Source: Candidatus Omnitrophota bacterium (GTDB lineage: Bacteria; Omnitrophota; Gorgyraeia; Zapsychrales; Zapsychraceae). Taken from it: 64,000 nucleotides of DNA. Below are positions 14,819 to 43,384 of this stretch, piece after piece. Both the position numbers and the translations under genes were made by a program. The DNA lies in the NCBI GenBank assembly GCA_020429915.1, contig JAGQKV010000006.1, positions 5,458-69,457 on the forward strand, in the 5' to 3' direction. The notes below the pieces were generated by a model, which did no database searches, was not told where the DNA came from, and saw only the letters and a list, made by a program, of their open reading frames with translations. The number at the start of each line of letters is the position of its first letter. The stretch's first letter is position 1.

Positions 14819-15985
14819 ATGTATCAATCCCAGGAAAAACCGACCCGCCTTAATTATTTCCAGAAAGTCGTCAGCCATCTTACTTATTTTGATTTCGTCT
14901 ACAAAAATCCCTGGGTTGTAGCCCGCCTTATCAAGAATTATTTCCGAATCATCGTCTTGCGGCAGCAGGTTATCCGCATTATCGATATCGGCGTTACCGC
15001 CGCATGCAACGCCAAGTGCGCGCATTGCTGCAGCGACGCCACCGTCGACACGCGCTGCACCACGCAAGGTGCGCCTGAGATGCGTGAACCGCTCGACATT
15101 GAAGAAATCGAAGATATCATCGCTCAAAGCGTGAAGATGGGTGCCGTGATTTTCAATTTCCTCGGTGGCGAACCACTGGTGTACAAAGACATTTACCGCG
15201 CCATCCGTTGCGTCAAGAAGCATCATGCCATCGCCGGGATGTCGACGAATGGATTTCTGCTTTCCGAAAAGGTCGTCGCTCAGTTGAAAGAAGCCGGGCT
15301 TGACTGCATTCAGGTGGACCTCGGCGGGGGACTCAATCCCAAGGAAATCGACGAGATCCGCGGACTCACCGGATGTCTTGACAGGGCGCTGAACGGGATC
15401 CGGCTGCTGAAGGAGGCCAACATCAAGGTCATTATGAGTACGATCATGACCAAGAAGAATGCCGCCAACGGGGACATCTGGAAGATGGTTCAGCTAGCCA
15501 AGGACCTGAACATCAAGATCAACGTCAATTGCTCCTCACGCACCGGCGGGTGGGCCGGCAATGAGGACAGCGAGCTGTCCGAAAAGGAATTTGCGATCTA
15601 CAAGGAAATCATCAAGATGCCGCACACGCGGTGGGCCGGCAGCACGAATTATTTTGCCGAGTTCTGTCCCTGCGGGACCGAAAAGATCATGATCACCACT
15701 TACGGTGAGATTCAGCCCTGCGGGTTGATCCCGCTTTCTTACGGGAATTTCCGCAGCGAGGCGATCAATGATATCTGGACCCGCATGCAGACCCAGAAGA
15801 TCATTTGTGACGGCAAGAAGGAAAAGGCCTGCCGCTCCGCCTGGGATAAGGACATCATCCGGCTGAACACATCCATGTATGAAACGGATAAGCCCAAACC
15901 GTTGCGGGTCGACGACATTCCCCAGGAGCGGTTGAAGGCCACGGAAAAGCCGGCGGATTCGACGGTCAATTCTTCCCAATCGTAG
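14819..15985 (+). CDS. Radical SAM enzyme with C-terminal SPASM/twitch domain
   Basis: 'CNAKCAHC' CX3CX2C radical SAM cluster motif. A second C-terminal Cys cluster 'CPCGTEK..PCG' is typical of SPASM/twitch auxiliary domains. An AGGAGG RBS lies 7 nt upstream. Confidence 0.75.
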   Translation: MYQSQEKPTRLNYFQKVVSHLTYFDFVYKNPWVVARLIKNYFRIIVLRQQVIRIIDIGVTAACNAKCAHCCSDATVDTRCTTQGAPEMREPLDIEEIEDIIAQSVKMGAVIFNFLGGEPLVYKDIYRAIRCVKKHHAIAGMSTNGFLLSEKVVAQLKEAGLDCIQVDLGGGLNPKEIDEIRGLTGCLDRALNGIRLLKEANIKVIMSTIMTKKNAANGDIWKMVQLAKDLNIKINVNCSSRTGGWAGNEDSELSEKEFAIYKEIIKMPHTRWAGSTNYFAEFCPCGTEKIMITTYGEIQPCGLIPLSYGNFRSEAINDIWTRMQTQKIICDGKKEKACRSAWDKDIIRLNTSMYETDKPKPLRVDDIPQERLKATEKPADSTVNSSQS

Positions 15986-16007
15986 TCACGATCCGGAGAC
16001 AAAAGTC

Positions 16008-16052
16008 AATTGCGGCAAGGGTTTGCGATAATCTCGCGCTTGCCGCCCGGGT
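16008..16052 (+). terminator. Stem-loop immediately downstream of the first rSAM gene (possible terminator or attenuator)
   Basis: GCGGCAAG(16008-16015)...CTTGCCGC(16045-16052): an 8-bp perfect inverted repeat with a 29-nt spacer/loop that contains a smaller hairpin. There is no strong T tract. Confidence 0.3.
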
Positions 16053-16105
16053 TTAAGTATTCTATCCTTGTAGCATAGATTTCCGCTCCGGCCGCCGTCC
16101 GATAT

Positions 16106-16136
16106 TTGTAGACAAAGAGGTTAATGGGGATATAAT
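16106..16136 (+). promoter_or_regulatory. Candidate sigma70-like promoter for the second SPASM rSAM gene
   Basis: TTGTAG(16106-16111)-N19-TATAAT(16131-16136) inside a 231-bp AT-rich intergenic region. Confidence 0.3.
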
Positions 16137-16216
16137 ATTACTACTATAAATCAGTAGAAACACGGATACCGGATGCGTGGACAGACGCCCGAACGACCCG
16201 CCTCAAAGGCCATAAG

Positions 16217-17272
16217 ATGATAAATATAAACAACTTATGGAAACACAGAAAATTGCTGCGTAACAATTTTCAGATTGTTCCCAGAGTTGTCCAGGATTAC
16301 TACCGGCTGCTGGTCCTGAAACAGCCGGTCCTGCGCAAAGTGGACATTGCCGTGATTGCCGGGTGCAACGCGAAATGTCCTTTTTGTTTTGCCGCGACCC
16401 TGGAAAATGAGGAGGGCCCGCAACTCAGCCTTCCCGAGATTCAGGGGATCGTCACCGAAGCGGTTAAGCTCGGGGCCATCGCGGTGGAGTTTATCGGCGG
16501 TGAACCGTTGATGTGCCGCCACCTCGCCGACGCGGTCCGCTTTGCCCGCCGCCAGAATGTCCTCACCAGCACCACCACCAACGGCCTGCTGCTTACACAC
16601 AAAAAGATCCATGAGCTCAACGACGCCGGCCTGAATGTCATCCAGATCAGTCTCGACAGCGCCGATCACCGCGAACACGATGCCAGCCGGGGTGTACCCG
16701 GCTGTTACGCCAAGATCATGCAGGCCATTGAATGGATTCGCGAAACCGATATCGAGCTGATGCTCAGCACGGTGGCCACCAATGAAAACCTCAGTAACGA
16801 CGGTGTCATGAAGGTTGTGAAGTTTGCCGAGCATCTCGACGTCCCGATCACCGTCAACCCGGCCTCCAAGGCCGGGGGCTGGAAAGGGAATGCCAACGTC
16901 CTGCTGACCGATGAGAACCGCCGCCGTTTCGAACAGATCGTGCAAACGTCCCACGCGCGCTGGGCCGGCCAGGTGAATTTCCTTAAAGAGGGGTGTCCGT
17001 GCGGTAAAGAGGTTATTTATGTCACGGCTTACGGACATGTGATCCCCTGCGGTTTTATCCAGATTTCTTACGGAAATATCCGGCAGGAACCCCTGACCCA
17101 AATCTGGGACCGGATGCAGGAGCACCGGCTCATGCAGGAAGATAAAAACACCTGTATCGCCGCCTTTGACAAGGCATTCATTAAGGATTACATCGATCCG
17201 CTCGATCGCCGGGAAGATTTGCCGGTTTACATCCACGACCATCCCACATACAAGCAGAAGGTGAACGGATAA
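16217..17272 (+). CDS. Radical SAM enzyme with SPASM/twitch domain (paralog of 14819-15985)
   Basis: 'CNAKCPFC' CX3CX2C motif and C-terminal 'CPCGKE..PCG'. Collinear similarity with the preceding rSAM (e.g. 'VLRKVDIAVIAGCNAKC' vs 'VIRIIDIGVTAACNAKC'; 'HARWAGQVNF' vs 'HTRWAGSTNY'). Confidence 0.75.
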   Translation: MININNLWKHRKLLRNNFQIVPRVVQDYYRLLVLKQPVLRKVDIAVIAGCNAKCPFCFAATLENEEGPQLSLPEIQGIVTEAVKLGAIAVEFIGGEPLMCRHLADAVRFARRQNVLTSTTTNGLLLTHKKIHELNDAGLNVIQISLDSADHREHDASRGVPGCYAKIMQAIEWIRETDIELMLSTVATNENLSNDGVMKVVKFAEHLDVPITVNPASKAGGWKGNANVLLTDENRRRFEQIVQTSHARWAGQVNFLKEGCPCGKEVIYVTAYGHVIPCGFIQISYGNIRQEPLTQIWDRMQEHRLMQEDKNTCIAAFDKAFIKDYIDPLDRREDLPVYIHDHPTYKQKVNG

Positions 17273-17274
17273 CT

Positions 17275-18699
17275 ATGAAAGTACTGCTCGTCAATCCCTG
17301 GTCGCTTAAGAAATTCAATGTGATTGTGATTCCCAACATCAGTCTGGGTTATCTCGCGGCGTCGCTGATGAAGGCGGGGCACGAGGTGGAAATTCTGGAT
17401 TGTGTCCGGGACCGTATCGATCCCGATCAATTTGAAAGCCGGATTCGTGAGAATCCCGACTATGACCTGATCGGATTTTCGTTGTTTACGACCTACGTAG
17501 GAGCGGTCAAGAAATATACCGAGGCGATCAAACGGATCAATCCGCGCATCGCAACCGCGGTGGGCGGTCCGCACGCCGTGCTCGAACCGGTGGAAACTTT
17601 GGAGATCCTCACGGACGTCGACTTCGGATTCCGTGGCGAGGCGGAAATCGGGATATGCCAACTCGTCGAAGTCCTCGGCATGGAGGCCGACCCGTATGGT
17701 CACGACCGGTTGCGCGAGGTGGATAATCTGGTGTGGCGCGACAAGGGCGGTGAAATCGTTTGCAATCCCCGCGTGATGATCGACGATCTGGACAGCCTGC
17801 CGTACCCGCCGTGGGATATTATGAATCCGGGCAAGTATCCGCTGGCCCCGATCGGAGTCTTTTCCAAACGGCGCAAAGTTGCGCCGATCATCGCCACGCG
17901 CGGCTGCCCGTACCCGTGCACTTTTTGCGCGGCCGGAAAGATGTCCGGCAAAAAGATGCGCACCCGTTCGGTGGAAAACATTCTGGATGAAATCAAACTG
18001 CTGGTGGACAAGTTTGGCGTCGAGGAAATCAATATCCTGGATGATAACTTTACGTTGCAACACAAGCTGGTCGAGGATTTTTGCCACGGATTGATCGACA
18101 ACAATATCGATATTACCTGGTCCTGTCCCAACGGGGTCCGGCTCGACACGCTCGACGCGGAGTTATTGAAGTTGATGGAGCGGGCCGGCTGCTATTCCTT
18201 CGGTGTCGGCATCGAGTGGGGCACGTCCAAGATGCTCAAGATCACGCGCAAGTGCGTGACGCTGGCCACCATCCGTGAAAAGGTGGACCTGATCAAGGCC
18301 AACACCAATATCCGGGTGACCGGCTTCTTCATGCTCGGGCATCCGGAAGAAACGATCGAAGACGTGGAGGCTACCATTGACTTTGCCTGCAGTCTGAATA
18401 TCGACCGGGCCAATTTTTTCAACTTTTCGCCGTTTCCGGGGATTGTCGAATACGACAAACTGAAACGGGAAGGGAAGGTCATCAAGAACTGGTATGACTC
18501 GCTTTATATCAACAGCGTCGTGTACACGCCGCGGCAGATGACCCGCCAGCAATTGGTCAATCTGCAGCGCAAGGCCTTTTGGCGGTTCTACACGCGCCCG
18601 CGGATATTCTTTAATATTCTGAAGGAGATTAAATCGTTCAGCCAGTTTATGGTGGTCTTCAAAAAATCGATGCGGTTAGTCTTCGTTCACGGTCAGTAG
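17275..18699 (+). CDS. B12-binding-domain radical SAM enzyme (class B rSAM)
   Basis: N-terminal Rossmann-like cobalamin-binding region ('VLLVNPW...GYLAASL..GHEVEILD'). 'TRGCPYPCTFC' CX3CX2C motif. Confidence 0.75.
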   Translation: MKVLLVNPWSLKKFNVIVIPNISLGYLAASLMKAGHEVEILDCVRDRIDPDQFESRIRENPDYDLIGFSLFTTYVGAVKKYTEAIKRINPRIATAVGGPHAVLEPVETLEILTDVDFGFRGEAEIGICQLVEVLGMEADPYGHDRLREVDNLVWRDKGGEIVCNPRVMIDDLDSLPYPPWDIMNPGKYPLAPIGVFSKRRKVAPIIATRGCPYPCTFCAAGKMSGKKMRTRSVENILDEIKLLVDKFGVEEINILDDNFTLQHKLVEDFCHGLIDNNIDITWSCPNGVRLDTLDAELLKLMERAGCYSFGVGIEWGTSKMLKITRKCVTLATIREKVDLIKANTNIRVTGFFMLGHPEETIEDVEATIDFACSLNIDRANFFNFSPFPGIVEYDKLKREGKVIKNWYDSLYINSVVYTPRQMTRQQLVNLQRKAFWRFYTRPRIFFNILKEIKSFSQFMVVFKKSMRLVFVHGQ

Positions 18700-18703
18700 T
18701 GAG

Positions 18704-20116
18704 GTGCGTACGGTGTCTACGGCGAAAGTATCGTTAATTCGACTCGACCTGGGAAACAGCAAAAATATCAAGCATCCCTACCATTGTTCTCCGCCTTTTT
18801 CTTTAAAATATCTGGAAGCGATCCTGCGGGAGAGCGGCTTTGAGGACGTACGACTCTACGATGCCATGCCGGGCCGTCACCGCAATGAAGATGTGCTTGC
18901 CGAACAATTGACCCGTCGGCCGGACTTTGTCATTTATACGGTGAACGTCACCACCCTCAAGGAATTCCGCGCCTTCAATGCCCGTCTCAAACAGGAGCGC
19001 CCGGTGCTGACGGTGGCTATGGGGTCGATCGATCCGCGGTTCGTTCCGCCGGAGCTGGATATCTATCTGCCCGGAGAGGCCGAGGTGGAGGCCGCACAGC
19101 TTTTGCAGCGCATCGTTGACGGGGAAAGCGACGCCGAGACGGAAATCACCCGTTACGCCAAATACAAACAGGGACCGCAGCCGAATTTTCTCGTCCACAA
19201 TCTGGATGACCTGCCGTTTCCGGTTTACACCCGTGATGAAATCAAGGACTACCGGTTCATTTATCCGGTGCGGATGTCGCGCAAATTGCGCTGGGGTCAT
19301 ATCCTGTCGTCGCGCGGATGCCCGTATAAATGCACCTTTTGCTCGCCGGTGACGCGGGAAAGTTACGGCGCGAAGGCCCGGTTACGCTCGGCCGCCAATG
19401 TAGTCGATGAGATCGAGCGTCTGAAAGAGCAGGGTGTGAACATGATCAGCTTTGACGACGACCTGTTGACCATTACCCGCCGGCATATCACGGAGTTGTG
19501 TGATGAGATGATCCGCCGCGACGTGCAGATGAACTGGCTGGCGCATTCGCGCATCGACAATATCGATTACGAATTGCTGCGCAAAATGAAGGCGGCTGGT
19601 TGCGTGCTGCTGCGTTTCGGCGTCGAGTCCGGATCCGCCCGGATTGTGGCGTCTTTGACCAAATCGTTCAAGAAGATCGACTGGAACGACCAGGCCAAGA
19701 GAATATTCCGTTATGCCAGGGAGCTCGATATCGCTACCCATGCGCTGTTGATTATCGGCAGCCCGACCGAAACCGAGGCTGAGATCCAGGAAACATTTCA
19801 ACTGGTAAAGGAAATCAACCCCGACATCATGCAGATCCACTTCTTCAGTCCGTATCCGGGTTCCGTCAGCTATGAGCAGCTCAAGACCGAGTTGAGCGAA
19901 GATCAGGTGATGAACATGTTTCATTACGAACTTCCGCGGCAGACCATGGGTTCCCTGAATTCGGAGCGTTTAGGGCAAATCCGGTCGGACCTGTACCGGC
20001 GCATCTTTCTTAATCCGCGCTTCTTTTTCAGTCACATGCGCAAGTATTTCAGTTTTTATATGACAAACCTCGATGTCTTCTACCGGCTGTCCAAGGGTCT
20101 GATTTACATTAGATAA
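18704..20116 (+). CDS. B12-binding-domain radical SAM enzyme (paralog of 17275-18699)
   Basis: GTG start. 'SRGCPYKCTFC' motif. Collinear with the preceding gene ('LDDLPFPV', 'AAGCVLLRFGVESGS'). Confidence 0.7.
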   Translation: MRTVSTAKVSLIRLDLGNSKNIKHPYHCSPPFSLKYLEAILRESGFEDVRLYDAMPGRHRNEDVLAEQLTRRPDFVIYTVNVTTLKEFRAFNARLKQERPVLTVAMGSIDPRFVPPELDIYLPGEAEVEAAQLLQRIVDGESDAETEITRYAKYKQGPQPNFLVHNLDDLPFPVYTRDEIKDYRFIYPVRMSRKLRWGHILSSRGCPYKCTFCSPVTRESYGAKARLRSAANVVDEIERLKEQGVNMISFDDDLLTITRRHITELCDEMIRRDVQMNWLAHSRIDNIDYELLRKMKAAGCVLLRFGVESGSARIVASLTKSFKKIDWNDQAKRIFRYARELDIATHALLIIGSPTETEAEIQETFQLVKEINPDIMQIHFFSPYPGSVSYEQLKTELSEDQVMNMFHYELPRQTMGSLNSERLGQIRSDLYRRIFLNPRFFFSHMRKYFSFYMTNLDVFYRLSKGLIYIR

Positions 20117-20120
20117 TTCC

Positions 20121-21389
20121 ATGACCAAGAAGTTACCCCGCGACAAGCGCGGCCCGCTCGTCGGGATTATATTCTTTCTCGTTCTTTTGTTTCTGATCGA
20201 AGCGGCGTCCTATTTGTGTCCGGCCAAACCCGACCGGCTGGAACGGATCCGCGCCGTATTGCGCCAGGACAGCCAGTTGTTCTGGCGCCAGCGCGCGCAT
20301 TTGAATACCGTCTTTGAGGGCGCGGCCGTACGGACCAACCGGTTGGGACTTCGCGACGAGCCGGTGAGCAAGGGCGGAAAGAAGCCGGTACTGCGCATCG
20401 TGACCCTCGGTGCCTCGCCGACATTCGGGTGGGGGGTAGAGCAAAACGATACCTACGCCCAGGTGCTTGAACGGATCCTGCGCGACACCTTAAATACCGA
20501 GCAGGTGGAGGTGATCAACGCCGGACAGATCGGTTTCAGTTCCTATCAGGGGCTGAAGTTTTTCCGGGAGGTGATCCTGCCGTTGAAGCCGAATATGATC
20601 ACCGTCTCGTATGTGATCAACGACGTGGACAAGTACCGGTTTTTCCGCAACCACTCGGCCCCTGACAGCCAGCTGAAGCCGCAGAGCGGATTGCTGGTGG
20701 CCGTGGAGAACGCGCTGGAACACAGCCGGTTTTTTCGTTTATATCGCAAGTTGGTCAACGGGACCAAATCGGCGTCGCAACAATTTTTCGGGGAGCGCGG
20801 CACCGGCGAATACCGGGAGTCACGGCGGGTGTCCCCGGAGGAATATCGCGCGAATATCACGGCACTGATCGATTTGGCACAACAGCACGGTATCGACGTG
20901 GTCCTGGTCAAGATGCCGGTCAATCTGCCGCAGCCGGTGAAGGTCCCGGAAAGCAATGTGATCCGGGCGAAGCAGACCGTGACCGAGGCGATGGTGTGGG
21001 CCGAGCGTGGTTACCGGGAGGAAGCCATCCGTTTACTGCAACAGGCGCTGGCGTACAATCCCAACACGCCCCGGGCGCACTATTATCTCGGGCAGCTCTA
21101 CCAGCGCACGGGCAAACGCAAGCAGGCCCGCAAACATTTTGAACGCACCGTTGTCCTGGAACTGTACGAATGCGCGCGGCTGGCCCTGGAGTACCACCGT
21201 GTGCTGGACGACATTGCCGCGCAGCGTGATGTTCGTCTGGTCGACGTGGTCACGGCCTTTGACGAATACCGCCGCTACGGCGGAGACTACCTGTTTCTGG
21301 ATCCGGAGCATGACACCATTCATCCCAACCGCACGGGTCACGCCGTGATCGGCTGGGCCATTTACGACGAAATCTTCGCGCGGCCGTGA
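20121..21389 (+). CDS. Membrane-anchored SGNH/GDSL-family hydrolase with an inserted TPR module
   Basis: N-terminal TM helix. Block I 'VTLGASPTFG', block III 'VINAGQIG', block V 'DTIHPNRTGH' (DxxHP). TPR-like 'AIRLLQQALAYNPNTPRAHYYLGQLYQRTGKRKQARKHFERT' sits between blocks III and V. Confidence 0.65.
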   Translation: MTKKLPRDKRGPLVGIIFFLVLLFLIEAASYLCPAKPDRLERIRAVLRQDSQLFWRQRAHLNTVFEGAAVRTNRLGLRDEPVSKGGKKPVLRIVTLGASPTFGWGVEQNDTYAQVLERILRDTLNTEQVEVINAGQIGFSSYQGLKFFREVILPLKPNMITVSYVINDVDKYRFFRNHSAPDSQLKPQSGLLVAVENALEHSRFFRLYRKLVNGTKSASQQFFGERGTGEYRESRRVSPEEYRANITALIDLAQQHGIDVVLVKMPVNLPQPVKVPESNVIRAKQTVTEAMVWAERGYREEAIRLLQQALAYNPNTPRAHYYLGQLYQRTGKRKQARKHFERTVVLELYECARLALEYHRVLDDIAAQRDVRLVDVVTAFDEYRRYGGDYLFLDPEHDTIHPNRTGHAVIGWAIYDEIFARP

Positions 21390-21402
21390 GCCTGCGCAAC
21401 CG

Positions 21403-21636
21403 GTGAAGACGATGACAAAGCCGAACGAACAACCCGATCCCCAACGGAAGCCGGAACGGCTCAAGAACAAGAAGATCAACACCAACAAAGAACTGTTGGT
21501 CGAGCTGTTCCAGATGATCAAGGAGCACAAGAAATGGTGGCTGTTGCCGTTCCTCTTAGTTCTGGCCTTTCTCAGTATTTTTGTGAACCTGGCCGGTAAC
21601 TCCTCCATTCTTCCCGCGATATACGCCCTGTTTTAG
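21403..21636 (+). CDS. DUF5989-like small membrane protein
   Basis: C-terminal 'ELLVELFQMIKEHKKWWLLPFLLVLAFLSIFVNLAGNSSILPAIYALF' matches the DUF5989 pattern (..KERKKWWLLPIIL..L.S..APFIYTLF). There is an unusual ~25-aa basic N-terminal extension; the start may be further downstream. Confidence 0.5.
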   Translation: MKTMTKPNEQPDPQRKPERLKNKKINTNKELLVELFQMIKEHKKWWLLPFLLVLAFLSIFVNLAGNSSILPAIYALF

Positions 21637-21686
21637 TATCAATCCGCGCACCGTCCGCCCGGACAGGCCATTCGGAATATTCCGTC

Positions 21687-22439
21687 ATGAACAAAAACCA
21701 TATGAAAATAGCGACCGTCATCCTCATTGTGGGTGCTGTGGCCTATAGTGTGTATGTTTTCCTGCAGGAGAGCGGCCGCGCGCGCATGGAGCAGCATTGG
21801 TCGGGGCAGCGTTTTGCCGCGCGGGATTATTATCCGCTGACGCCCGGGAACAAGTGGACATATCGTATCAGTGGTGATGACGAGCAATCCCGTTTGGACG
21901 TCGAAATCACCCAACGGGTGCAGTGGCAGGGACGCGATGCCGTCCGGGTGACTTTCAACGACGCGGCTTCAAAGATTCTCGGATTCGCCGAGAGCGGTCT
22001 GGTTAAATATCAGGAGATCGACGACGGAGAACAGGAAGTTTATGATCCTCCAGGCAGCATATTGCCCGATTTGACGTTCGGCGAATCCAGGGTGTTTCAT
22101 CCCAAATACGTTATGCAAACGGCGGACGCGGAGGTCGCCACCCGGGCTGCCGCCGAAATGAGTTTTTGGCTGGATACCATCGAAAGCGTCAAGGTGCCGG
22201 CCGGCACTTTCCGGGATGTCCTGAAAGTCGGCTATTACGACCGTTGGGAAGAAGAGGACGGGAGTTTCGATATCAGCCGCGGATATATCTGGTTTGCCAG
22301 GGGCGTCGGGATTGTTAAAATCAAAGGCTCGGCCACCGAAGTCGATCCCGAGAGCGGTCGGCGCGAGACGGAAAAGGAAATGCACGTGCTGGTATCGTAT
22401 CATATCGCCGGCGATGCACGGGAGGGCCGTAGTGAATAA
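21687..22439 (+). CDS. Hypothetical membrane-anchored protein
   Basis: N-terminal TM helix followed by a ~200-aa soluble domain. Codon usage is consistent with neighbouring genes. No motif recognised. Confidence 0.45.
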   Translation: MNKNHMKIATVILIVGAVAYSVYVFLQESGRARMEQHWSGQRFAARDYYPLTPGNKWTYRISGDDEQSRLDVEITQRVQWQGRDAVRVTFNDAASKILGFAESGLVKYQEIDDGEQEVYDPPGSILPDLTFGESRVFHPKYVMQTADAEVATRAAAEMSFWLDTIESVKVPAGTFRDVLKVGYYDRWEEEDGSFDISRGYIWFARGVGIVKIKGSATEVDPESGRRETEKEMHVLVSYHIAGDAREGRSE

Positions 22440-23757: not shown

Positions 23758-23811
23758 GTGAAAATATGCTAGAATATAAATACTTATATTATTACCCGGA
23801 CAGGATTCCCC

Positions 23812-26758: not shown

Positions 26759-26760
26759 TC

Positions 26761-26961
26761 ATGAAAACGATACGGAAAATAATGGCTTTTATCTTGTGCG
26801 GGATCGGATTGATTTTGCCGTGGAAGCTGCGCTGCATCTACATCGAGATCCTGGGCTGGATCACCCAGTTTGTTTATTTGTCTTATATCGTCATTCTCAA
26901 ATTTATTCTACAGGAACTGCAAAAGGCCAAGGCCGAACAGGCAAACTATGAAACTCAATGA
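26761..26961 (+). CDS. Small hydrophobic protein (two TM helices)
   Basis: 66-aa ORF starting 3 nt after the upstream stop. Hydrophobic. Overlaps the next start by 14 nt. Confidence 0.3.
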   Translation: MKTIRKIMAFILCGIGLILPWKLRCIYIEILGWITQFVYLSYIVILKFILQELQKAKAEQANYETQ

Positions 26962-27799
26962 GACGGCGACACTATTTTCAGGCGGGACCGACTCGACGCT
27001 GACCGCGGCCTTGATGGCCGAGAAGTTCGACAAGATCCATCTTATCACTTATGACCGATTCGCGTTTTCGTCGGTCATGAATCCGATGGTGAACGTTAAG
27101 AAGCTGCGCGATAAGTACGGCGAGGACAAGTTCGATTTCCACGTCATCAAGGTCGAGAAGCTGACCCGTTTCGTTTTCTACGAACGTTACTTGCACAACA
27201 TCCGTAAACACGGCTTCTTCTTATTGACGATATGCGGATTGTGCAAACTGGCGATGCACGTGCGTACCGTGATCTTTTGCCTGGAAAACGGGATCCCCAA
27301 TGTCTGCGACGGCGCCAATCAGGGCATGCACCTGTTCCCGGCCCAGATGGCCAGCGTGATCAAGGAGTACGGCGATATGTACACGCGCTACGGGATCACC
27401 TATTCCAATCCCGTATTTAAATATGAAGGGCCGCAAGATCTGGATTTTACGGACCGCCTGCGTCTGGAGCGCGTGCTGTCCCGGGACAAGGAGCCTGCAA
27501 CCGCGACGGCCGCACGCACCGCCAACACCACCGGCCGCAAACTGTATGAACTGGGCCTGATGCCGTCGGAAAACGTGAAGGGCACCGAACTCGACCGGAG
27601 GATGCAGCCGCGCTGTTTTCAATTTATCCTCTTTAATGTCTTCGTCCACTGGTTTTATCTGGCGGACCATACGTATGAAGAATACCAGGACGCGACGGTC
27701 CGGTTTTATCAGGATAAAATTCGGGCCATGGTGAAGCATTTGGATGACTATGCCGCCGCCGGCGCTGACAGCCGGTTGGCGAGAATGATCGAAAGGTGA
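26948..27799 (+). CDS. PP-loop superfamily ATP pyrophosphatase (putative sulfurtransferase/adenylyltransferase)
   Basis: Start at the ATG at 26948. 'LFSGGTDST' is the SGGxDS PP-loop motif. Conserved Cys pairs ('CGLCKLAMH','FCLENGIPNVCDGAN'). Confidence 0.65.
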   Translation: MKLNETATLFSGGTDSTLTAALMAEKFDKIHLITYDRFAFSSVMNPMVNVKKLRDKYGEDKFDFHVIKVEKLTRFVFYERYLHNIRKHGFFLLTICGLCKLAMHVRTVIFCLENGIPNVCDGANQGMHLFPAQMASVIKEYGDMYTRYGITYSNPVFKYEGPQDLDFTDRLRLERVLSRDKEPATATAARTANTTGRKLYELGLMPSENVKGTELDRRMQPRCFQFILFNVFVHWFYLADHTYEEYQDATVRFYQDKIRAMVKHLDDYAAAGADSRLARMIER

Positions 27800-27800
27800 A

Positions 27801-28169: not shown

Positions 28170-28172
28170 CTT

Positions 28173-29390
28173 ATGAGTTTGGATATCAACGCAATCCGTA
28201 ACGACTTTCCCGCGCTGCAACGCCTCATCAAAGGCAAACCGCCGGTTTATTTCGACAATGCCTGCATGACCCTGCGGCCGCAGACGGTTATCGACGCGAT
28301 GACGCACTATTACCGGGAACACCCCAGCTGTCATCGCCGGTCGATCCACAAATTCGGCAAGGAAACCACCGCCGCGTATGATAAAGCCAAGAAAACGGTG
28401 CGCGCGTATATCAATGCCAAGGACGCCGATGAGATCGTCTTTACCAAAAACGCCACCGCCGGGATCAACATTGTCGCGCACGGTTTGAACTTTCAGCCCG
28501 GGGATGTCCTTCTGACGACGACGCTGGAACACAACTCCAATTTCTTACCGTGGCAATTCGTGGCCAAAAAGGCGGGGGCGAATCTCGCGGCGGTGCCGTT
28601 GACGCCGGAACTGACCTTTGATCTGGACGCGTATCGCAAGGCCCTTACCGATGAGGTCAAGGTCGTGGCCGTTCCGCATAAGAGTCACATCACAGGGTAT
28701 ACCTATCCGGTCAAAGAGATCATTCAACTGGCCCACGCGCGGGGCGCGGTGGTGCTGATCGACGCGGCGCAAAGCGCGGCCCAGGACGACATCGACGTCC
28801 AGGAGCTGGATGCGGACTTCCTGGTGTTTTCTTTTCACAAGATGCTCGGTCCCAGCGGCACAGGCTGCCTGTACGGAAAGAAGAGTTATCTGGACAACCT
28901 GACGCCGGTGTTTATCGGCGGGGAGACCGTAGACGATGTCAGTCACAACGCCTATGCGTTAACCAAGGTCCCGGAACGGTTCGAGGCGGGGCTGCAGGAT
29001 TACGCCGGGGCAATGGGCGTGACCGCGGCAGTGGAATATTTGCAGCGTGTCGGTCGTCCTGCCGTCCGCGCGCATATCGGGAAATTGAACGCCTTGGTCA
29101 CCCAAGGCATCTCGGAATTGCCCAAGGTCCGCATCCTCGGTCCGGCCGCGGCGGCACAACGCGGCGGGATCGTTAATTTCCAGATCGACGGCATGGATGC
29201 GGGTGAGTTGTCGATCATTCTCGATGAAACCGACAATATCATGACCCGCAGCGGGGTGCATTGCTGCCACGCGGGATACAAACGGCACAATCTGAGCCCG
29301 AGTTTACGGGTATCGTTTTATATGTATAATACAGAACAAGAAGCGGAGCTTTTTGTCGACCGGCTGAAGAAGATCGTCCGTTTTTTCTAA
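28173..29390 (+). CDS. Cysteine desulfurase, class V aminotransferase (SufS/CsdA-like)
   Basis: 'FSFHKMLGPSGTGCLYG' is the PLP-lysine region; 'TRSGVHCCHAGY' matches the SufS active-site Cys loop (RxGxHCA). Confidence 0.8.
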   Translation: MSLDINAIRNDFPALQRLIKGKPPVYFDNACMTLRPQTVIDAMTHYYREHPSCHRRSIHKFGKETTAAYDKAKKTVRAYINAKDADEIVFTKNATAGINIVAHGLNFQPGDVLLTTTLEHNSNFLPWQFVAKKAGANLAAVPLTPELTFDLDAYRKALTDEVKVVAVPHKSHITGYTYPVKEIIQLAHARGAVVLIDAAQSAAQDDIDVQELDADFLVFSFHKMLGPSGTGCLYGKKSYLDNLTPVFIGGETVDDVSHNAYALTKVPERFEAGLQDYAGAMGVTAAVEYLQRVGRPAVRAHIGKLNALVTQGISELPKVRILGPAAAAQRGGIVNFQIDGMDAGELSIILDETDNIMTRSGVHCCHAGYKRHNLSPSLRVSFYMYNTEQEAELFVDRLKKIVRFF

Positions 29391-29393
29391 AAC

Positions 29394-30692
29394 ATGAATA
29401 TACTGCTGATCAAACCGTACTGGCCTTATCCCTACGGCAAAGGGGAGCACACCTATAACCGTATATGGCCGCCGTTGTCGCTGGCGAATTGCGCTGCGAT
29501 TCTGGAACAGCGGGGGCATACGGTGGCCATCCTCGACGCGCACGCGCGGCGTATCCGCCCCCGATATATCGCGCGGCACATCGGCGGCTACGACAAGATA
29601 TTCCTGACATCATCTTCCTTGGACCGCTGGCAGTGTCCCAACGTCAATATGGTCCCCTTCTACGAAACCACCTCCGCGCTACGCGAGGCAGGCGCCGGGT
29701 TTTACGTGATGGGTTATCACGGGACTGTCGACGCGCAGAATGTCTTGGAACAGAGCGGGGCGCGCGCCGTCATCCGCGGCGGGCCCGAATTCATCGTAGC
29801 CGATATTTGCGCCGGCACCCCGCTGGCACAGATCAACGGCGTGAGCTATTTTGAAGGCGAAACCTTCCGCGCCAATCCCGATTACGGCAATTTCGAACTG
29901 ACCGAGCTGCCGGTACCGGCGTTTCATCTGCTCGATATCGACAAATATTTCTACGAGATTCTGGGCAAACGGTTCATGCTGTTCGAACTGGGCCGGGGCT
30001 GCAACTTCGGCTGCAAGTTTTGCAACCGCATCATGTACGCGCCCAAGCTGCGGGTGAAGACCAGCGAGCAGATGTGCGAAGAGGTGCGGACGGCCGTGGA
30101 GGAGCACGGCGTGAAGACGGCCTATTTCATGGACCTGGAATTTCTGCACTACAAAAATCATGTCAGCCGGCTGTGCGACTTCTTGATTGAAAAGAACTAT
30201 AACTTCAAATGGTGCTGCCAGACGCGGGCCGATTCGGTTGACCCGGACATTCTCGCGAAAATGAAGCAGGCCGGTTGTCAACTCATCCACGTCGGGGTGG
30301 AGAGCGGAACGAAAAAATACCTCGACCTCACCAACAAGTCCATTTCCCCTGAGCAGATTTTGGAGGGGGTCTCCATGTGTCGGGCCGCCGGGATCAAGAC
30401 GCTGGCCTTTTATATGTTCGGGTTAAAAGAGGAATCGGAAGACGACCGCCGGGAGACGTTTCGCTTTGCCAAAAAGCTGAACACCAACTTTGTCTCCTTC
30501 CACAAGGTCTATCCGTACCTGAAGAGCAATGTGTACATGCCGGATATCAATTTCAACAAATACATCGATAATTACATCCGCCGGGTGTATATCCAGTACT
30601 ACCTCCGTCCGGAATACATCTGGAGTTCGGATATGCTGACCCTGCTGCGCAGTTTCCGGGTGTTCATGGGGCGTTTACTGACTCTTATATGA
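29394..30692 (+). CDS. B12-binding-domain radical SAM enzyme
   Basis: 'GRGCNFGCKFC' CX3CX2C motif. N-terminal Rossmann-like domain ('ILLIKPYW..LSLANCAAILEQRGHTVAILD'). Confidence 0.7.
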   Translation: MNILLIKPYWPYPYGKGEHTYNRIWPPLSLANCAAILEQRGHTVAILDAHARRIRPRYIARHIGGYDKIFLTSSSLDRWQCPNVNMVPFYETTSALREAGAGFYVMGYHGTVDAQNVLEQSGARAVIRGGPEFIVADICAGTPLAQINGVSYFEGETFRANPDYGNFELTELPVPAFHLLDIDKYFYEILGKRFMLFELGRGCNFGCKFCNRIMYAPKLRVKTSEQMCEEVRTAVEEHGVKTAYFMDLEFLHYKNHVSRLCDFLIEKNYNFKWCCQTRADSVDPDILAKMKQAGCQLIHVGVESGTKKYLDLTNKSISPEQILEGVSMCRAAGIKTLAFYMFGLKEESEDDRRETFRFAKKLNTNFVSFHKVYPYLKSNVYMPDINFNKYIDNYIRRVYIQYYLRPEYIWSSDMLTLLRSFRVFMGRLLTLI

Positions 30693-32722
30693 TGAATCCC
30701 ATCCGTATATCCATCATCCTTCCCGTTTACAATGAAGAAGCGAATATTCAGCGCACTGTTGAAGAGGCGGCGCAGTGGTTGAAGCAGTGCGCCGGTATCT
30801 CCGCTTACGAAATCGTGGCGGTGAACGACGGCAGCCGCGACAACAGCGGTAAAATCCTGGAGCGTTTGAAAACCGAAGTCGAGAATCTCGTGGTGGTGGA
30901 CTATCCCGGGAACAAGGGATACGGAGGCGCGCTGGTGAGCGGGATTCGCGTGGCCCGTTACGACTGGATCCTGCTGATGGACTCCGACGGACAGTTCAAG
31001 ATGGACGCGCTGGCCGGTCTGCTCGAGTATACAGAGGAACACGACATCGTGGCCGGATACCGCCGGCAGCGGCAAGATAATTTCCTGCGCATCTGGCTCG
31101 GCGAGCTGTATACATTCCTGGCCGGCGCCTTCCTGAAGGTTCGGCTGCGCGACATCAACTGCGGATTCAAATTGTTCCGCAAATCTTTTCTGGATGTCGA
31201 CGGGATCAACACACATGCCGGCGCATTTTATACCCATGTCTTTATGAACGCGCACGCCAAGAACGCGCGGATCAAGGAAGTCCCGGTTGCGCATCACCCG
31301 CGCCCGGCCGGACGGTCGACAGGAGCCAGCCCCAAGGTGGTGATGATGGCCGTCAGTGATTTTTGGGACCTGCTGTTCGGTCGGGGACGGTCATCCGCCG
31401 CGCCGACACGCACGTCATGGGCCGGCAAAGCGGGCCTGCTGATCCTCGGTTGTTTTCTGACGCTGGTCGTGCTCGAGGTAGGCATGCGGACGTCCGGCGC
31501 CCTGATCACCACGGCGCAGTCTTTGCAGAACCGTTTGGCTGTCCGTGACGACAGCCGCTACCGCATTCTGTGCGTGGGGGAATCGACCACCTTCTTCGGG
31601 ACCTACAATTACGCGTATCCGCATATGCTCGAGGAGATCCTTAACCAGCACCCGGCCGGAAGCGAGTACCGGGTCTTTAATGAAGGACAGATCGGCACCG
31701 ATACGGATGAAATTCTCGAAGACCTGTCGGACCATCTGCGACGGTACCGACCGCACATGGTGATCGCGATGATGGGTGTCAACGACGCCTTCGGAGAGGA
31801 TTTGGGAACGGTGCCGGCGGGAGGGTTCTCGCATTTGCGTGTGGTCCGTTTGATGCAGCTCATTCGTCGTCACTGGCAGGAAAAGTTCGGGTCCTATCGC
31901 GGTGACCGCCATGTCGAACGGGGATACGAGTTTTTGAGTGACGGTGACATCGAGGAGGCGTGGGCGGAGGTGGAACGGGCCCGGCGGGCCGGTGCGCCGC
32001 CGGCGGAAATTGAAGCTCTGACCGGACATATCCATTGGCTGGCTGCCGGTGATTTCGACCGGTCGGCGGCGGCCTATGACAAGGCCCTCAGTCTGGACCC
32101 CGGCCGCGAGTGGCTTTATGAAGATTATTTTCAGGTCCTGTACTACGGCAATCGTTATGAAGAGGCTGCCGGTGTGATGCAACGGATGCTGGCCCGCTTT
32201 CCCAAATCAGAGGATGCCTACCGGAAGCTGGGGAAGGTGTATCTTCAACTGAAACAGTACGACAAACTCGAGGCCCTCCTGCAAAAGGCGGACGAGCAGG
32301 TTCCCGATGATCCGGGGATGATCAGGATCCGGGCGGCCTATCATCTGGCCAAGGGGGAAACCGACCGGGCCGAACGTCTTTTTGAACGCTATGCCGAGTA
32401 TGAACGTCAACACACCAATCCGCGGACGGCGGATAATTACCGTATCCTGCGGGATACGGTCCTGGCCTCGGGGGCTGAATTGGTAGCCGTACAGTATCCG
32501 TTGCGGGACGTGGATTCGCTCAAGGCCATGCTGAACAATGACCGGCGGGTCACTTTCGTCTCCAACGAGGATAATTTCAAGTCAGCGGTCCTGGAACACG
32601 GCTACGGCCAGCTCTTCACCGACCAATTTGCCGGCGACTTCGGTCATTTGAGCGACCGCGGGAACCGTCTGCTGGCCGGTGCGGTGGCCGAAGCGATTTT
32701 AGGGCATCTGCAAAGGCGGTAA
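30689..32722 (+). CDS. Fusion protein: GT2 (DPM1/GtrB-like polyprenyl-phosphate glycosyltransferase) plus SGNH hydrolase with TPR insertion
   Basis: N-terminal 'ISIILPVYNEE...VAVNDGSRDNS...LMDSDGQ' is a GT2 DxD-type domain. A TM helix follows, then 'RILCVGESTTFFG' (block I), 'VFNEGQIGTDTD' (block III), TPR repeats and 'FAGDFGHLSDRGNRL' (block V). Confidence 0.7.
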   Translation: MMNPIRISIILPVYNEEANIQRTVEEAAQWLKQCAGISAYEIVAVNDGSRDNSGKILERLKTEVENLVVVDYPGNKGYGGALVSGIRVARYDWILLMDSDGQFKMDALAGLLEYTEEHDIVAGYRRQRQDNFLRIWLGELYTFLAGAFLKVRLRDINCGFKLFRKSFLDVDGINTHAGAFYTHVFMNAHAKNARIKEVPVAHHPRPAGRSTGASPKVVMMAVSDFWDLLFGRGRSSAAPTRTSWAGKAGLLILGCFLTLVVLEVGMRTSGALITTAQSLQNRLAVRDDSRYRILCVGESTTFFGTYNYAYPHMLEEILNQHPAGSEYRVFNEGQIGTDTDEILEDLSDHLRRYRPHMVIAMMGVNDAFGEDLGTVPAGGFSHLRVVRLMQLIRRHWQEKFGSYRGDRHVERGYEFLSDGDIEEAWAEVERARRAGAPPAEIEALTGHIHWLAAGDFDRSAAAYDKALSLDPGREWLYEDYFQVLYYGNRYEEAAGVMQRMLARFPKSEDAYRKLGKVYLQLKQYDKLEALLQKADEQVPDDPGMIRIRAAYHLAKGETDRAERLFERYAEYERQHTNPRTADNYRILRDTVLASGAELVAVQYPLRDVDSLKAMLNNDRRVTFVSNEDNFKSAVLEHGYGQLFTDQFAGDFGHLSDRGNRLLAGAVAEAILGHLQRR

Positions 32723-32726
32723 GACT

Positions 32727-33920
32727 ATGGAATTCGGATTCATGAAACGGGTGGACTACTGGGCGGGAAGGCCGCTGTGCTGGCTTTTGACGCTGTGGCG
32801 CCGGATCATACCCGGCCGGCCGGCTCGAGCAATGCCTCCCGAGCGGATCCTGATCATCAAGCCCTCGGAGTTGGGGGCGATTATCCTCGCTTTTCCGCTG
32901 ATCAACCGGTTGCAGCAACAGTACCCGCAGGCCCGGATCAGTTTTCTGACCTTTGCCGCCAATCGCTCGTTATTCGAAGTCAGCCGGATGGTCCCGGCCG
33001 ATCAGATAATCACCCTGCGGGAGGGGTCTTTCGGCGTTTTTCTGACCGATGTGATATCGGCTCTGGCCCGGATCCGGCGGGAGCGGTATGATGTGGTGAT
33101 CGATCTGGAGTTCTTTTCACGCTTCACCGCGATCGTGAGCTTTTTCAGCGGTGCCCCCAAGCGGGCCGGTTTTCACCGCTACAGCATCGAGGGGGTTTAT
33201 CGCGGGGATCTGTTCACTCACAGGGTGCCCTACAATCCGCACCGTCACGTCCAGCAGATGTACCTCCACATGATTTCCAGTTTGGACAAATCCTTTAAGG
33301 ATACCCCCGAGAATGATGCCCCGGATCCCGACTACGGAACGGATTGGCGCTACCAACCCTCCGACGACACACGTGACCGGATACGGACAAAATTGGCGGC
33401 TGAAGGGGTGGATCCGGCGGCCCGCCTCTATTTGTTGGCCCCGGGGGAGGGACGAATCCCGTTGCGGGAATGGCCGTTAGAGAACTTTGTGAGCCTGGCT
33501 GACCGGATTCTGGAGGACCCGCAGGCCAGGGTGGTGGTCGTCGGGCTGCAAGATCCTGCCGGACGTGCCGGGCATTTGCTCAATACGGTCCGCTCCCGCG
33601 ACCGGGTCACCGATTGGGTAGGCCGGACCGACCTCCCTGAGCTGCTGACGCTTTTCTCCCTGGCCAAGGGGGTGGTGGCCGCCGATTCGGGGCTGGCGCA
33701 TCTGGCCGCGCTGACCCCGGTTAAAAATTACGTCCTGTTCGGCCCCGAGCATCCGCGCATCTTCCAACCGTTGGGCGAGAACACCGTGGTATTCTATCTC
33801 GGCCTCCCATGTTCGCCGTGTCTGTCTGTCTTTAATCATCGCAACTCCGCCTGCCGGGACAATCTCTGTCTGAAGCATATCTCCGTGGACGAAGTTTACC
33901 GGTCGCTTGTGGATAACTGA
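32727..33920 (+). CDS. Glycosyltransferase family 9 (heptosyltransferase, WaaC/WaaF-like)
   Basis: 'ILIIKPSELGAII' N-terminal motif and 'VVAADSGLAHLAAL' (GT9 'DSGPMHLAAA' motif). Confidence 0.7.
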   Translation: MEFGFMKRVDYWAGRPLCWLLTLWRRIIPGRPARAMPPERILIIKPSELGAIILAFPLINRLQQQYPQARISFLTFAANRSLFEVSRMVPADQIITLREGSFGVFLTDVISALARIRRERYDVVIDLEFFSRFTAIVSFFSGAPKRAGFHRYSIEGVYRGDLFTHRVPYNPHRHVQQMYLHMISSLDKSFKDTPENDAPDPDYGTDWRYQPSDDTRDRIRTKLAAEGVDPAARLYLLAPGEGRIPLREWPLENFVSLADRILEDPQARVVVVGLQDPAGRAGHLLNTVRSRDRVTDWVGRTDLPELLTLFSLAKGVVAADSGLAHLAALTPVKNYVLFGPEHPRIFQPLGENTVVFYLGLPCSPCLSVFNHRNSACRDNLCLKHISVDEVYRSLVDN

Positions 33921-43310: not shown

Positions 43311-43384
43311 GCCCGGGATTTTTTGGGCCGGTCTTAAGTTCATAATATACAATATTTTACGATTTTTTGTCGACGACCGATTCG

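Follow-up and report, generated by a model that had tools for sequence, protein, structure and literature searches.

Introduction

In the YcfA–YcfC pathway of 6-thioguanine biosynthesis, the PP-loop ATP pyrophosphatase YcfA activates a guanine carbonyl by adenylation and attaches free L-cysteine to it, and YcfC, a class-V pyridoxal phosphate (PLP) enzyme without the desulfurase cysteine, cleaves the adduct and leaves a thioamide (PMC12494993). In the Dlt and PatAB systems, the tyrosine motif FxYxxF is the acyl carrier from which SGNH partners receive D-alanine (DltX) or acetate (PatA) (PMC12148441). The saxitoxin gene cluster contains, as neighbours, sxtI (encoding a carbamoyltransferase), sxtJ, sxtK (54 aa) and sxtL (encoding a GDSL protein of 426 aa) (PMC2679770). 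Here, we describe a locus of a Candidatus Omnitrophota bacterium that shares features with each of these systems. The whole stretch of DNA analysed, referred to below as the window, comprises 64,000 nt of contig JAGQKV010000006.1 (positions 5,458 to 69,457), and our main subject is a five-gene cassette within it that encodes a membrane-anchored SGNH enzyme (SGNH1), a DUF5989 microprotein, a B12-binding radical S-adenosylmethionine (SAM) enzyme (B12_3), a hydrophobic microprotein of 59 aa (p59) and a PP-loop protein of the DUF7411 family.

A first-pass annotation, made from the sequence letters and their translations, had picked out positions 14819–33920 of the window as a single machine that builds and edits a surface glycan or glycolipid, of a composition not described before. 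The last point held: the parts all belong to known superfamilies, and their combination matches no described system in curated families, the Protein Data Bank or the searchable literature. Our literature search returned no paper or curated family that describes the cassette, no paper on DUF7411 and none that mentions DUF5989; no acyl-shuttle paper covers the cassette families, papers on Omnitrophota do not mention the cluster, and SxtJ and SxtK are still without an assigned function. To our knowledge, cobalamin radical SAM chemistry, ATP-dependent sulfur insertion and SGNH/tyrosine-tail transfer are not known to work together. The five-gene cassette is a more interesting object than the cluster as a whole.

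Results

A five-gene cassette recurs across phyla

Domains were called with Pfam, equivalog cut-offs were those of NCBIfam, and membrane topology was derived solely from hydropathy and positive-inside calculations. The five-gene core was defined from a stand-alone arrangement on a 5.98 Mb contig (ctg13255c; locus L092, 7255–11287), in which DUF5989, B12_3, p57 (in the position of p59), DUF7411 and SGNH1 follow one another with overlapping or abutting genes between unrelated flanks. A PAS-domain histidine kinase and a sigma-54 activator are encoded directly after this cassette. In the window, the same five genes form the core of a segment that we call module B (20.1–29.4 kb), with TM122, SufS and extra SGNH–TPR enzymes as accessories. 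The cassette is split there, lineage-specific SGNH genes separating SGNH1–DUF5989 (20121–21636) from B12_3–p59–DUF7411 (25253–27799).

A metagenome scan yielded 80 loci, and tblastn counts were made on the 32 that carry a full-length DUF7411 ortholog on at least 8 kb of sequence. SGNH genes were found in 27 of these, p59 in 26, a B12_3-type radical SAM gene in 25 (with another radical SAM type in four more) and DUF5989 in 21; SufS and GT2 (family 2 glycosyltransferase) genes were each present in 12, SPASM genes in nine and a carbamoyltransferase–SxtJ gene in eight. The neighbourhoods of DUF7411 homologs in 14 diverse metagenome loci contain 184 ORFs with a length of 200 aa or more; 46 of these (25%) encode radical SAM enzymes and 31 (17%) SGNH proteins, which exceeds chance. 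Pfam searches with 106 otherwise unassigned neighbours added 13 radical SAM and six GDSL proteins, together with methyltransferases, NDP-sugar epimerases/dehydratases and PMT_2 proteins.

Homologs of the PP-loop protein with 46–64% identity occur in Omnitrophota, Elusimicrobiota, a contig labelled Gottesmanbacteria and the predators Bacteriovorax stolpii and Halobacteriovorax marinus; the cassette genes also cluster in both predators and in an Elusimicrobiota metagenome-assembled genome. Orthologs of B12_3 (approximately 40–53% identity), whose nearest solved structures are 9ccb, AprD4 and TokK, adjoin p59 and DUF7411 in L092 and in the 25 metagenome loci, and a scan of genome contigs with B12_3 returned two close relatives only. 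In distant loci (L057, L064 and L053), the cassette again occurs with PMT_2–TPR, GT9 and DegT genes, a recurrence that argues for a functional link rather than chance adjacency. Because a stand-alone cassette exists, its core needs no nearby glycosylation genes.

Two single loci deserve mention. On the 1.87 Mb contig Ga0209340_1000001, a p59–DUF7411 pair (60% identity) stands with no other cassette gene within 10 kb, so cassette partners can be encoded elsewhere in a genome. In B. stolpii (CP025704, 3607544–3628380; L007), the DUF7411 trio is accompanied by a PqqD-like protein, three SPASM radical SAM enzymes, a methylmalonyl-CoA-mutase-like B12 protein with MeaB, a carbamoyltransferase, SxtJ, FdtA, two or three DegT-family aminotransferases, GT1 and GT2 glycosyltransferases and a Peptidase_S74-domain protein.

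DUF7411 is a YcfA homolog in a sulfur module

The DUF7411 protein, whose start lies at 26948 and not at 26870 as first annotated, has only weak Pfam matches, to DUF7411 and QueC. In an alignment of 33 sequences, the invariant positions are SGGTDS (residues 11–16), C96-G-L-C99-K, C111, DGAN, P131/Q133 and R-C223-F-Q, of which Cys96, Cys99, Cys111 and Cys223 are family-specific. The best Foldseek match of an AlphaFold (AF2) model (predicted local distance difference test score, pLDDT, 84.8) is YcfA of Erwinia amylovora (E=8e-10, TM-scores 0.60/0.76), and a DUF7411 profile search against YcfA (9kq6) gave E=1.8e-18. TtuA, NcsA, LarE and QueC were weak Foldseek matches (E around 1e-4). In [4Fe-4S]-dependent sulfurtransferases of the TtuA and NcsA type, a CxxC pair and a distal cysteine hold a cluster next to the ATP site; C96-x2-C99, C111 and C223 of DUF7411 are invariant and might or might not serve in this way. 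The family is rare, with 624 clusters at E≤1e-3 among 1.84 billion representatives and a few dozen full-length members.

As in YcfA–YcfC (PMC12494993), the genes for a class-V PLP enzyme and a PP-loop ATP pyrophosphatase occur together, and DUF7411 is a homolog of YcfA in both sequence and structure that keeps the SGGxDS loop and the F-P-x-Q active-site segment; within that segment, F132, P133 and Q135 are the only residues kept in the HMMER alignment, E134, the base with which YcfA activates guanine, being replaced by Ala or Asp. The two systems differ in several respects. DUF7411 is only about 19% identical to YcfA and has a C-terminal extension and the four invariant cysteines; its PLP partner is a true SufS with the catalytic cysteine, whereas YcfC is a C–S lyase without it; and the membrane proteins p59 and TM122 belong to the module described here. 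The substrate of DUF7411 is probably not a guanine nucleotide. We infer that the enzyme adenylates and then substitutes sulfur as YcfA does, but by a persulfide or Fe–S route.

The first-pass annotation had placed a SufS-like desulfurase next to the PP-loop ATPase as a sulfur-mobilizing pair. The sulfur module is genuine, combining a YcfA homolog with a SufS that retains its catalytic cysteine; the genes are not adjacent, being separated by that of the 122-aa membrane protein TM122. The SufS protein aligns over its full length to Bacillus subtilis SufS (E=5e-92), with the PLP lysine and active-site cysteine kept, and scores 427 bits against the TIGR01979 cut-off of 475. TM122 starts with Cys-Cys-Gly and has a very basic loop containing a further conserved cysteine; by the charge rule, the two cysteine sites would lie on opposite sides of the membrane, and the protein is a candidate persulfide relay. 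No other family was matched by TM122 in Pfam, even at E=10. Of about 17 distinct loci, at least 13 have an ORF of 116–127 aa, starting with CCG or CCS, in the interval from DUF7411 to SufS, and TM122 homologs are found in L007, L009, L010 and L014, among others.

The end of the p59 gene and the start of the PP-loop gene have 14 nt in common. The p59 motif LPW(R/K)LR...E.LGW.TQ is common to several phyla, about 32 sequences align with conservation over the whole length, and the protein is 76–83% identical in the relatives L002 and L003. An ORF of 57–65 aa precedes DUF7411 in all contexts inspected. The idea that p59 might be a fragment of SxtJ was dropped, as no similarity between the two was found.

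A tyrosine-tailed microprotein accompanies the SGNH enzyme

The catalytic residues of SGNH1 (S99, G138, N167, D398 and H401) vary little or not at all among 43 homologs, and its AF2 model (pLDDT 90.7) has the SGNH esterase fold. The nearest structures are generic esterases (GDSL proteins, Axe2 and TesA/lysophospholipase L1). Orthologs with 27–52% identity adjoin DUF7411 in many loci. Every SGNH–TPR protein has a single N-terminal helix after basic residues, except that in the GT2 fusion described below the helix sits between the domains; from these features, the SGNH–TPR domains are predicted to face the periplasm. SGNH3-type genes recur close to the cassette. In L002, the pair p250–SGNH2 lies upstream of SPASM_A, outside the cassette.

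In the DUF5989 protein, a basic N-terminus is followed by a single membrane helix and a tail of 12 residues with LPAIYALF at its end; the charge distribution predicts an N-in, C-out topology. The C-terminus is identical or nearly so in about 30 loci, with variants such as APFIYLLF in the most divergent; across these loci the tail reads [A/F/L/V]-I-Y-x-[L/I]-F, with Tyr and the last Phe invariant. In position and in its Tyr/Phe pattern, it resembles the FxYxxF acyl-shuttle motif. Pfam searches with DUF5989 gave no similarity to another family such as DltX, even at E=10. In 22 of the 32 loci, DUF5989 follows a same-strand SGNH gene at a distance of no more than 115 bp.

The comparison with Dlt and PatAB (PMC12148441) has two sides. 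Shared are a membrane-anchored SGNH protein with a Ser-Asp-His triad (here SGNH1, predicted to face outward), a single-pass microprotein with Tyr three residues before the C-terminal Phe (...IYALF here, FIYNEF and FIYANF there), a cytoplasmic, ATP-dependent, adenylate-forming enzyme and the size of the operon, with five genes. In contrast, the activating enzyme here is of the PP-loop type and not an ANL-family ligase, there is no MBOAT, AT3 or carrier protein, B12 radical SAM enzymes and a sulfur relay are added, the first motif residue is usually Ala, and SGNH1 has a TPR insert and is nearest in structure to esterases, not to DltD or PatB.

A carbamoyltransferase–SxtJ gene lies beside DUF5989 in many DUF7411 loci, and in SxtI–J–K–L (PMC2679770) SxtK, of DUF5989 size, is likewise encoded beside an SGNH protein (SxtL, about 426 aa) and an adenylate-forming group transferase. 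The co-occurrence of SxtJ and DUF5989 in Pfam suggests that SxtK might belong to DUF5989. In the window, tblastn detected no carbamoyltransferase or SxtJ; B12 radical SAM, p59 and DUF7411 genes are present instead. The pairings in the sxt cluster and in the DUF7411 loci suggest that DUF5989 and SGNH form a common ‘receiving’ pair that is served by differing adenylate-forming ‘donor’ enzymes.

Extent of the cluster and flanking modules

Every plausible gene in the run from 268 to 33920 lies on the + strand, and we revised the extent of the cluster to about 0.3–33.9 kb, with three modules (A, B and C; Table 1). Within the originally annotated range, the genes are real and co-directional, each domain call was verified by Pfam, as were the DegT and short-chain dehydrogenase (SDR) calls upstream, and the CX3CX2C motif is present in all six radical SAM enzymes. 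The spacing is tight (−17 to +54 nt), with the sole exception of 231 nt at 15986–16216; of the ‘several’ 4-nt overlaps claimed for the range, only one exists (30689/30692). All 16 cluster proteins stay under the cut-offs of the NCBIfam models, and none of them can therefore be filed under a named enzyme.

The 231-nt interval is the only sizeable non-coding gap of the cluster and contains the best sigma-70-like site (16109–16136, 11/12 matches). The flanking SPASM genes are about 8 bp apart in L002 and L003, which makes the gap particular to this genome. Counts of promoters and terminators were no higher than the shuffled expectation, the site in this gap being the only noteworthy one, and a search of the whole window against Rfam returned no RNA element and no cobalamin riboswitch.

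Module A (7.4–20.1 kb) is lineage-specific and comprises DegT, SDR, polytopic membrane proteins, two SPASM and two B12 radical SAM enzymes. The DegT–SDR pair is kept with the following genes in the groundwater relatives L004–L006, and orthologs of TM7 and TM9 are syntenic in L004 and L006; TM8 and TM9 are tandem paralogs of 591 aa. Because a groundwater relative keeps DegT–SDR–TM7–TM9–SPASM_A–SPASM_B–B12_1–B12_2 as a single intact block, with no SGNH1 after it, the left border first drawn at 14819 cuts through a conserved module. The best NCBIfam match of SPASM_A is AhbD-like (109 bits versus a cut-off of 500). SPASM_B belongs to a narrow family with 15 matches, and its nearest solved relative is BlsE, a cytosylglucuronate decarboxylase (E=3e-13). 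Orthologs of B12_1 and B12_2 (55–83% identity) are confined to related Omnitrophota-type contigs. The neighbourhood of SPASM/twitch and B12 radical SAM enzymes with an aminotransferase and an SDR recalls BlsE, AprD4/AprD3, BtrN and GenK-type systems, and module A may tailor a sugar. However, the similarity to BlsE and AprD4 reaches only E=1e-11 to 1e-13 over the radical SAM core alone, with no family cut-off met, and there are no genes for an aminoglycoside or nucleoside scaffold. That BlsE and AprD4 are among the nearest solved relatives of SPASM_B and B12_3 is compatible with, and far from diagnostic of, sugar tailoring.

Seven polytopic membrane proteins are encoded upstream of the SPASM genes. 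Their description as a battery of GT-C glycosyltransferases is only partly borne out, PMT_2 being significant in 2206–3723 and 5372–7417 only; the other five are sub-threshold or without a match. The four at 268–7417 are candidate GT-C-type glycosyltransferases.

Module C (29.4–33.9 kb) consists of B12_4, a GT2–SGNH–TPR fusion and a GT9 protein. The B12-binding domain of B12_4 scores 25 bits, under the 32-bit Pfam cut-off, and its orthologs are found in close relatives only. We considered whether B12_4 belongs to the conserved core and rejected the idea; in Bacteriovorax and Halobacteriovorax, the genes that follow SufS encode PA0069/Rv2578c-like radical SAM enzymes with no relation to it. The GT2 domain of the fusion resembles, at superfamily level, the polyprenyl-phosphate glycosyltransferases ArnC and PgfS (71 bits with the ArnC model, cut-off 529). 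The GT9 protein is below every curated heptosyltransferase I, II and III cut-off, the best being heptosyltransferase II of NCBIfam with 114 bits against 134.6. Together with the upstream PMT_2 proteins, module C may make a polyprenyl-phosphate-linked sugar and transfer it outside the cytoplasmic membrane. At superfamily level, DegT, the polyprenyl-phosphate-type GT2 and the PMT_2 and YfhO-like GT-C proteins recall the Arn system (ArnB, ArnC and ArnT) and CsbB/YfhO. Unlike in the Arn system, no equivalent of ArnA, ArnD or ArnE/F and no formyltransferase, deformylase or flippase was found, the GT2 is fused to a periplasmic SGNH–TPR domain and six radical SAM enzymes are interleaved.

The GT9 gene, the final gene of the cluster, is followed by a gap of 252 nt. 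What lies past 33920 has no relation to the cluster (two PilZ proteins, GH94, sugar uptake, LacI, MnmG, ThiG and LeuRS), and the genes at 34–64 kb, which serve housekeeping and sugar uptake, were rejected as members of the system. At about 65% identity, two GTDB genomes carry the cluster genes in nearly the same order. This synteny runs on into the unrelated downstream genes and therefore says little about function. The two adjoining PilZ-domain proteins (34173–34851), straight after the cluster, keep their position in L002 and L003, and PilZ-like matches also lie downstream of the cassette in L036 and L045; the pair could be a cyclic di-GMP link to surface-polymer genes. Downstream of GH94 and a sugar ABC importer, two secreted proteins (40977–43310 and 43093–44415) share repeat modules with the motif SYWALND..TSLFI.GEAY.

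Table 1. Genes of the cluster, with window coordinates and the basis of each assignment
Feature	Description	Coordinates	Strand	Basis
	Polytopic membrane protein, weak YfhO-like C-terminus	268–2187	+	Pfam, transmembrane (TM) counts
	Polytopic membrane protein, PMT_2	2206–3723	+	Pfam, significant
	Polytopic membrane protein, no family	3720–5339	+	Pfam, TM counts
	Polytopic membrane protein, PMT_2 and C-terminal TPR	5372/5486–7417	+	Pfam; start from gene call
DegT	DegT-family aminotransferase, start of module A	7414–8670	+	Pfam, 213 bits
SDR	Classical short-chain dehydrogenase	8667–9446	+	Pfam, 184 bits
TM7	Polytopic	9478–11226	+	TM counts
TM8	Polytopic, 591 aa, without any family	11242–13017	+	TM counts
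TM9	Polytopic, 591 aa, sub-threshold PMT_2	13029–14804	+	Pfam, TM counts
SPASM_A	Radical SAM, CNAKCAHC at residue 63	14819–15985	+	Pfam, NCBIfam
SPASM_B	Radical SAM, CNAKCPFC at residue 50	16217–17272	+	Pfam, NCBIfam
B12_1	B12-binding and Radical_SAM	17275–18699	+	Pfam
B12_2	B12-binding and Radical_SAM, end of module A	18713–20116	+	Pfam
SGNH1	Membrane-anchored SGNH with inserted TPR, cassette member	20121–21389	+	Lipase_GDSL_2 and TPR
DUF5989	Microprotein, 74 aa, cassette member	21412–21636	+	Pfam, E=5e-15
p250	Membrane-anchored protein, 250 aa, weak DUF3108-like match	21687–22439	+	Pfam, topology
SGNH2	SGNH–TPR	22432–23757	+	Lipase_GDSL_2 and TPR
SGNH3	SGNH–TPR	23812–25269	+	Lipase_GDSL_2 and TPR
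B12_3	B12-binding radical SAM, cassette member, CPFKCTFC at residue 214	25253–26758	+	Pfam
p59	Hydrophobic microprotein, 59 aa, cassette member, absent from the first-pass annotation	26782–26961	+	Gene calls and conservation
DUF7411	PP-loop ATP pyrophosphatase, 283 aa, cassette member	26948–27799	+	Alignment, model, profile
TM122	Two-helix membrane protein, 122 aa	27801–28169	+	Topology, locus comparison
SufS	SufS-type (type II) cysteine desulfurase	28173–29390	+	Aminotran_5, 379 bits
B12_4	Radical SAM, CNFGCKFC at residue 203	29394–30692	+	Pfam
GT2–SGNH–TPR	Fusion of cytoplasmic GT2, one membrane helix and periplasmic SGNH–TPR (predicted)	30689–32722	+	Pfam
GT9	Heptosyltransferase family	32727–33920	+	Pfam Glyco_transf_9, 82.5 bits

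Discussion

The explanation that we favour, tentatively, is that the region is a composite cell-envelope tailoring locus that acts on an envelope glycoconjugate. It starts from the observed gene content, homologies, conserved residues and the recurrence and adjacency pattern of the cassette, and extends conditionally to the substrate, the sulfur chemistry, a shuttle role for DUF5989 and a link between the modules. The GT2, PMT_2, DegT, SDR and GT9 genes indicate lipid-carrier-based glycosylation outside the membrane. In the cytoplasm, a B12 radical SAM enzyme would modify a small group or a membrane-bound intermediate, and p59 would keep the YcfA-like PP-loop enzyme at the membrane, where the enzyme would adenylate a carbonyl or carboxyl of the substrate. 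Sulfur would then replace or attack the adenylated oxygen, having passed from cysteine through SufS to the Cys-Cys protein TM122 and the conserved cysteines of DUF7411 itself. On the outer face, the membrane-anchored SGNH1 would transfer or trim the group on an envelope polymer with the assistance of DUF5989, which may act like DltX and carry the group on its C-terminal tail with the invariant tyrosine. A tyrosine shuttle as the specific mechanism is unlikely in our judgement; and the fuller proposal, in which the cassette would be an MBOAT-independent envelope decoration system made up of a PP-loop/SufS relay with a B12 radical SAM enzyme, a DUF5989 tyrosine carrier and an SGNH transferase, is improbable to the same degree.

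Several observations count against this explanation or parts of it. No substrate, nucleotide-sugar synthase, flippase or exporter was identified, and the minimal cassette of L092 has no nearby glycosyltransferase, so the target need not be a glycan. SufS and TM122 are missing from more than half of the loci, and a persulfide or Fe–S route is proposed from the conserved cysteines. In the HMMER alignment with DUF7411, the L-cysteine-binding residues of YcfA are replaced, Y128 by Gly and Q129 by Met. On the periplasmic side, the first position of the tail motif of DUF5989 is mostly Ala and is Phe in two cases only. A kinship of SGNH1 with DltD or PatB was considered and discarded, as neither is among its top 50 Foldseek matches. 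No MBOAT, AT3 or other polytopic conduit accompanies DUF5989 in the window or in the 25 top neighbour families (from 106 DUF7411 neighbours), so the model has no evident route by which the group would cross the membrane.

The same parts lend themselves to other targets. A secreted or periplasmic small molecule, such as a thio-modified product of the aminoglycoside, nucleoside or alkaloid type, might arise from a soluble scaffold on which the YcfA-like enzyme acts together with the radical SAM enzymes, DegT and SDR; DUF5989 and SGNH would be accessories, as they are beside the carbamoyltransferase in saxitoxin clusters. Enzymes of natural-product pathways are indeed the nearest characterized relatives (YcfA of 6-thioguanine, BlsE of blasticidin and AprD4 of apramycin), DUF5989-type and GDSL genes lie in the sxt cluster, and the cassette is present in predatory Bacteriovoracaceae. 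But these similarities are all far under family cut-offs, the window holds no non-ribosomal peptide synthetase, polyketide synthase, cyclitol synthase or exporter, and the eight or nine polytopic GT-C-like proteins and four membrane-anchored, predicted-periplasmic SGNH–TPR domains point to an envelope target; we regard a small-molecule product as doubtful. Membrane lipids are a further candidate target, in that B12 radical SAM enzymes could methylate, cyclize or cross-link chains or head groups in the manner of HpnP, HpnR, HpnJ or tetraether synthases, while the SGNH proteins act as periplasm-facing lipases or acyltransferases and PP-loop/SufS thiolates a lipid head group. The best NCBIfam matches, all sub-threshold, include HpnJ, BchE and a lipid-type B12 radical SAM family, SGNH1 has lipolytic GDSL proteins and TesA/lysophospholipase L1 among its neighbours in structure, the non-catalytic partners are all small membrane proteins, and a lipid target would suit a minimal cassette with no glycosyltransferase nearby. 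Yet lipid families score no higher here than B12 radical SAM families that are unrelated, neither the window nor the frequent neighbour families contain acyltransferase, isoprenoid or hopanoid genes, and the TPR inserts and the GT2, GT-C, GT9 and DegT context suit a polymer or protein better, making lipid remodelling an improbable function.

The cassette might also act on one of its own conserved microproteins, most likely DUF5989, which would then be a substrate instead of a helper, in the manner of ribosomally synthesized and post-translationally modified peptides (RiPPs) or of peptide-derived cofactors. PqqA and MftA are cofactor precursors with a similarly conserved C-terminus. The first-pass annotation had stated that no precursor-peptide ORF is present, overlooking two highly conserved microproteins, DUF5989 and p59, each of which might be a subunit, a shuttle or a substrate. 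B12 radical SAM and PP-loop/SufS enzymes would then modify the C-terminal peptide of DUF5989 before membrane insertion, to a methylated residue, a thioamide or a C-terminal thiocarboxylate, and SGNH would process it outside; a tail this short could be modified in the cytoplasm. The extreme conservation of the DUF5989 C-terminus across phyla fits such a role, as do the PqqD-like protein beside SPASM enzymes in the Bacteriovorax locus and the fact that B12 and SPASM radical SAM enzymes are common peptide maturases, to whose families there are sub-threshold NCBIfam matches. However, the RiPP radical SAM models stay far under their cut-offs, and the cluster lacks any PqqD or RiPP recognition element domain, peptidase or ABC exporter domain, with no such recognition domain, leader peptidase or transporter in the rest of the window. 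Both p59 and DUF5989 are conserved over their full length, not as a conserved leader with a variable core; DUF5989 also accompanies carbamoyltransferase–SxtJ in loci without a B12-type radical SAM enzyme; and its predicted equivalent SxtK belongs to saxitoxin clusters, whose product is not peptide-derived. A modified peptide is, on balance, rather unlikely. Very unlikely, in our view, is a mosaic of unrelated operons, in which independent surface-glycan genes are merely adjacent and SufS and the PP-loop protein do housekeeping work such as Fe–S supply for radical SAM enzymes or tRNA thiolation. The modules are separable, as module A can lack an SGNH1 gene after it and the cassette stands by itself elsewhere; synteny in close relatives continues into unrelated PilZ and GH94 genes, and there is a promoter-like site in the 231-nt gap. 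Against this stand the rarity of DUF7411, too great for a housekeeping protein, its position almost always beside p59, B12 radical SAM, SGNH and DUF5989 genes across phyla, the shares of radical SAM and SGNH proteins among its neighbours, and the distant loci that again join it to PMT_2, GT9 and DegT.

Returning to envelope tailoring, the original interpretation is partly supported by our analysis. The idea of a single indivisible system has to be given up, since the central five-gene cassette is found without any glycosyltransferase in another genome and the left SPASM/B12 pair goes with DegT, SDR and membrane genes outside the range first considered. C-methylation, O-acyl editing and thio-modification of a glycan, as then proposed, are conceivable activities of the enzymes encoded here.

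Our analysis provides first functional hypotheses for DUF7411, DUF5989 and two unannotated microproteins, and extends the newly described YcfA-type thio-chemistry beyond a single antimetabolite pathway. Omnitrophota are uncultured, and the presence of the cassette in the culturable B. stolpii and H. marinus makes genetics possible. If MBOAT-independent decoration proves true, the association of DUF5989 and SGNH with carbamoyltransferase–SxtJ would explain SxtJ, SxtK and SxtL, and the cassette would represent a new conserved envelope-modification system in which three chemistries meet: that of cobalamin radical SAM enzymes, sulfur insertion driven by ATP, and transfer by an SGNH enzyme with a microprotein that has a tyrosine tail.

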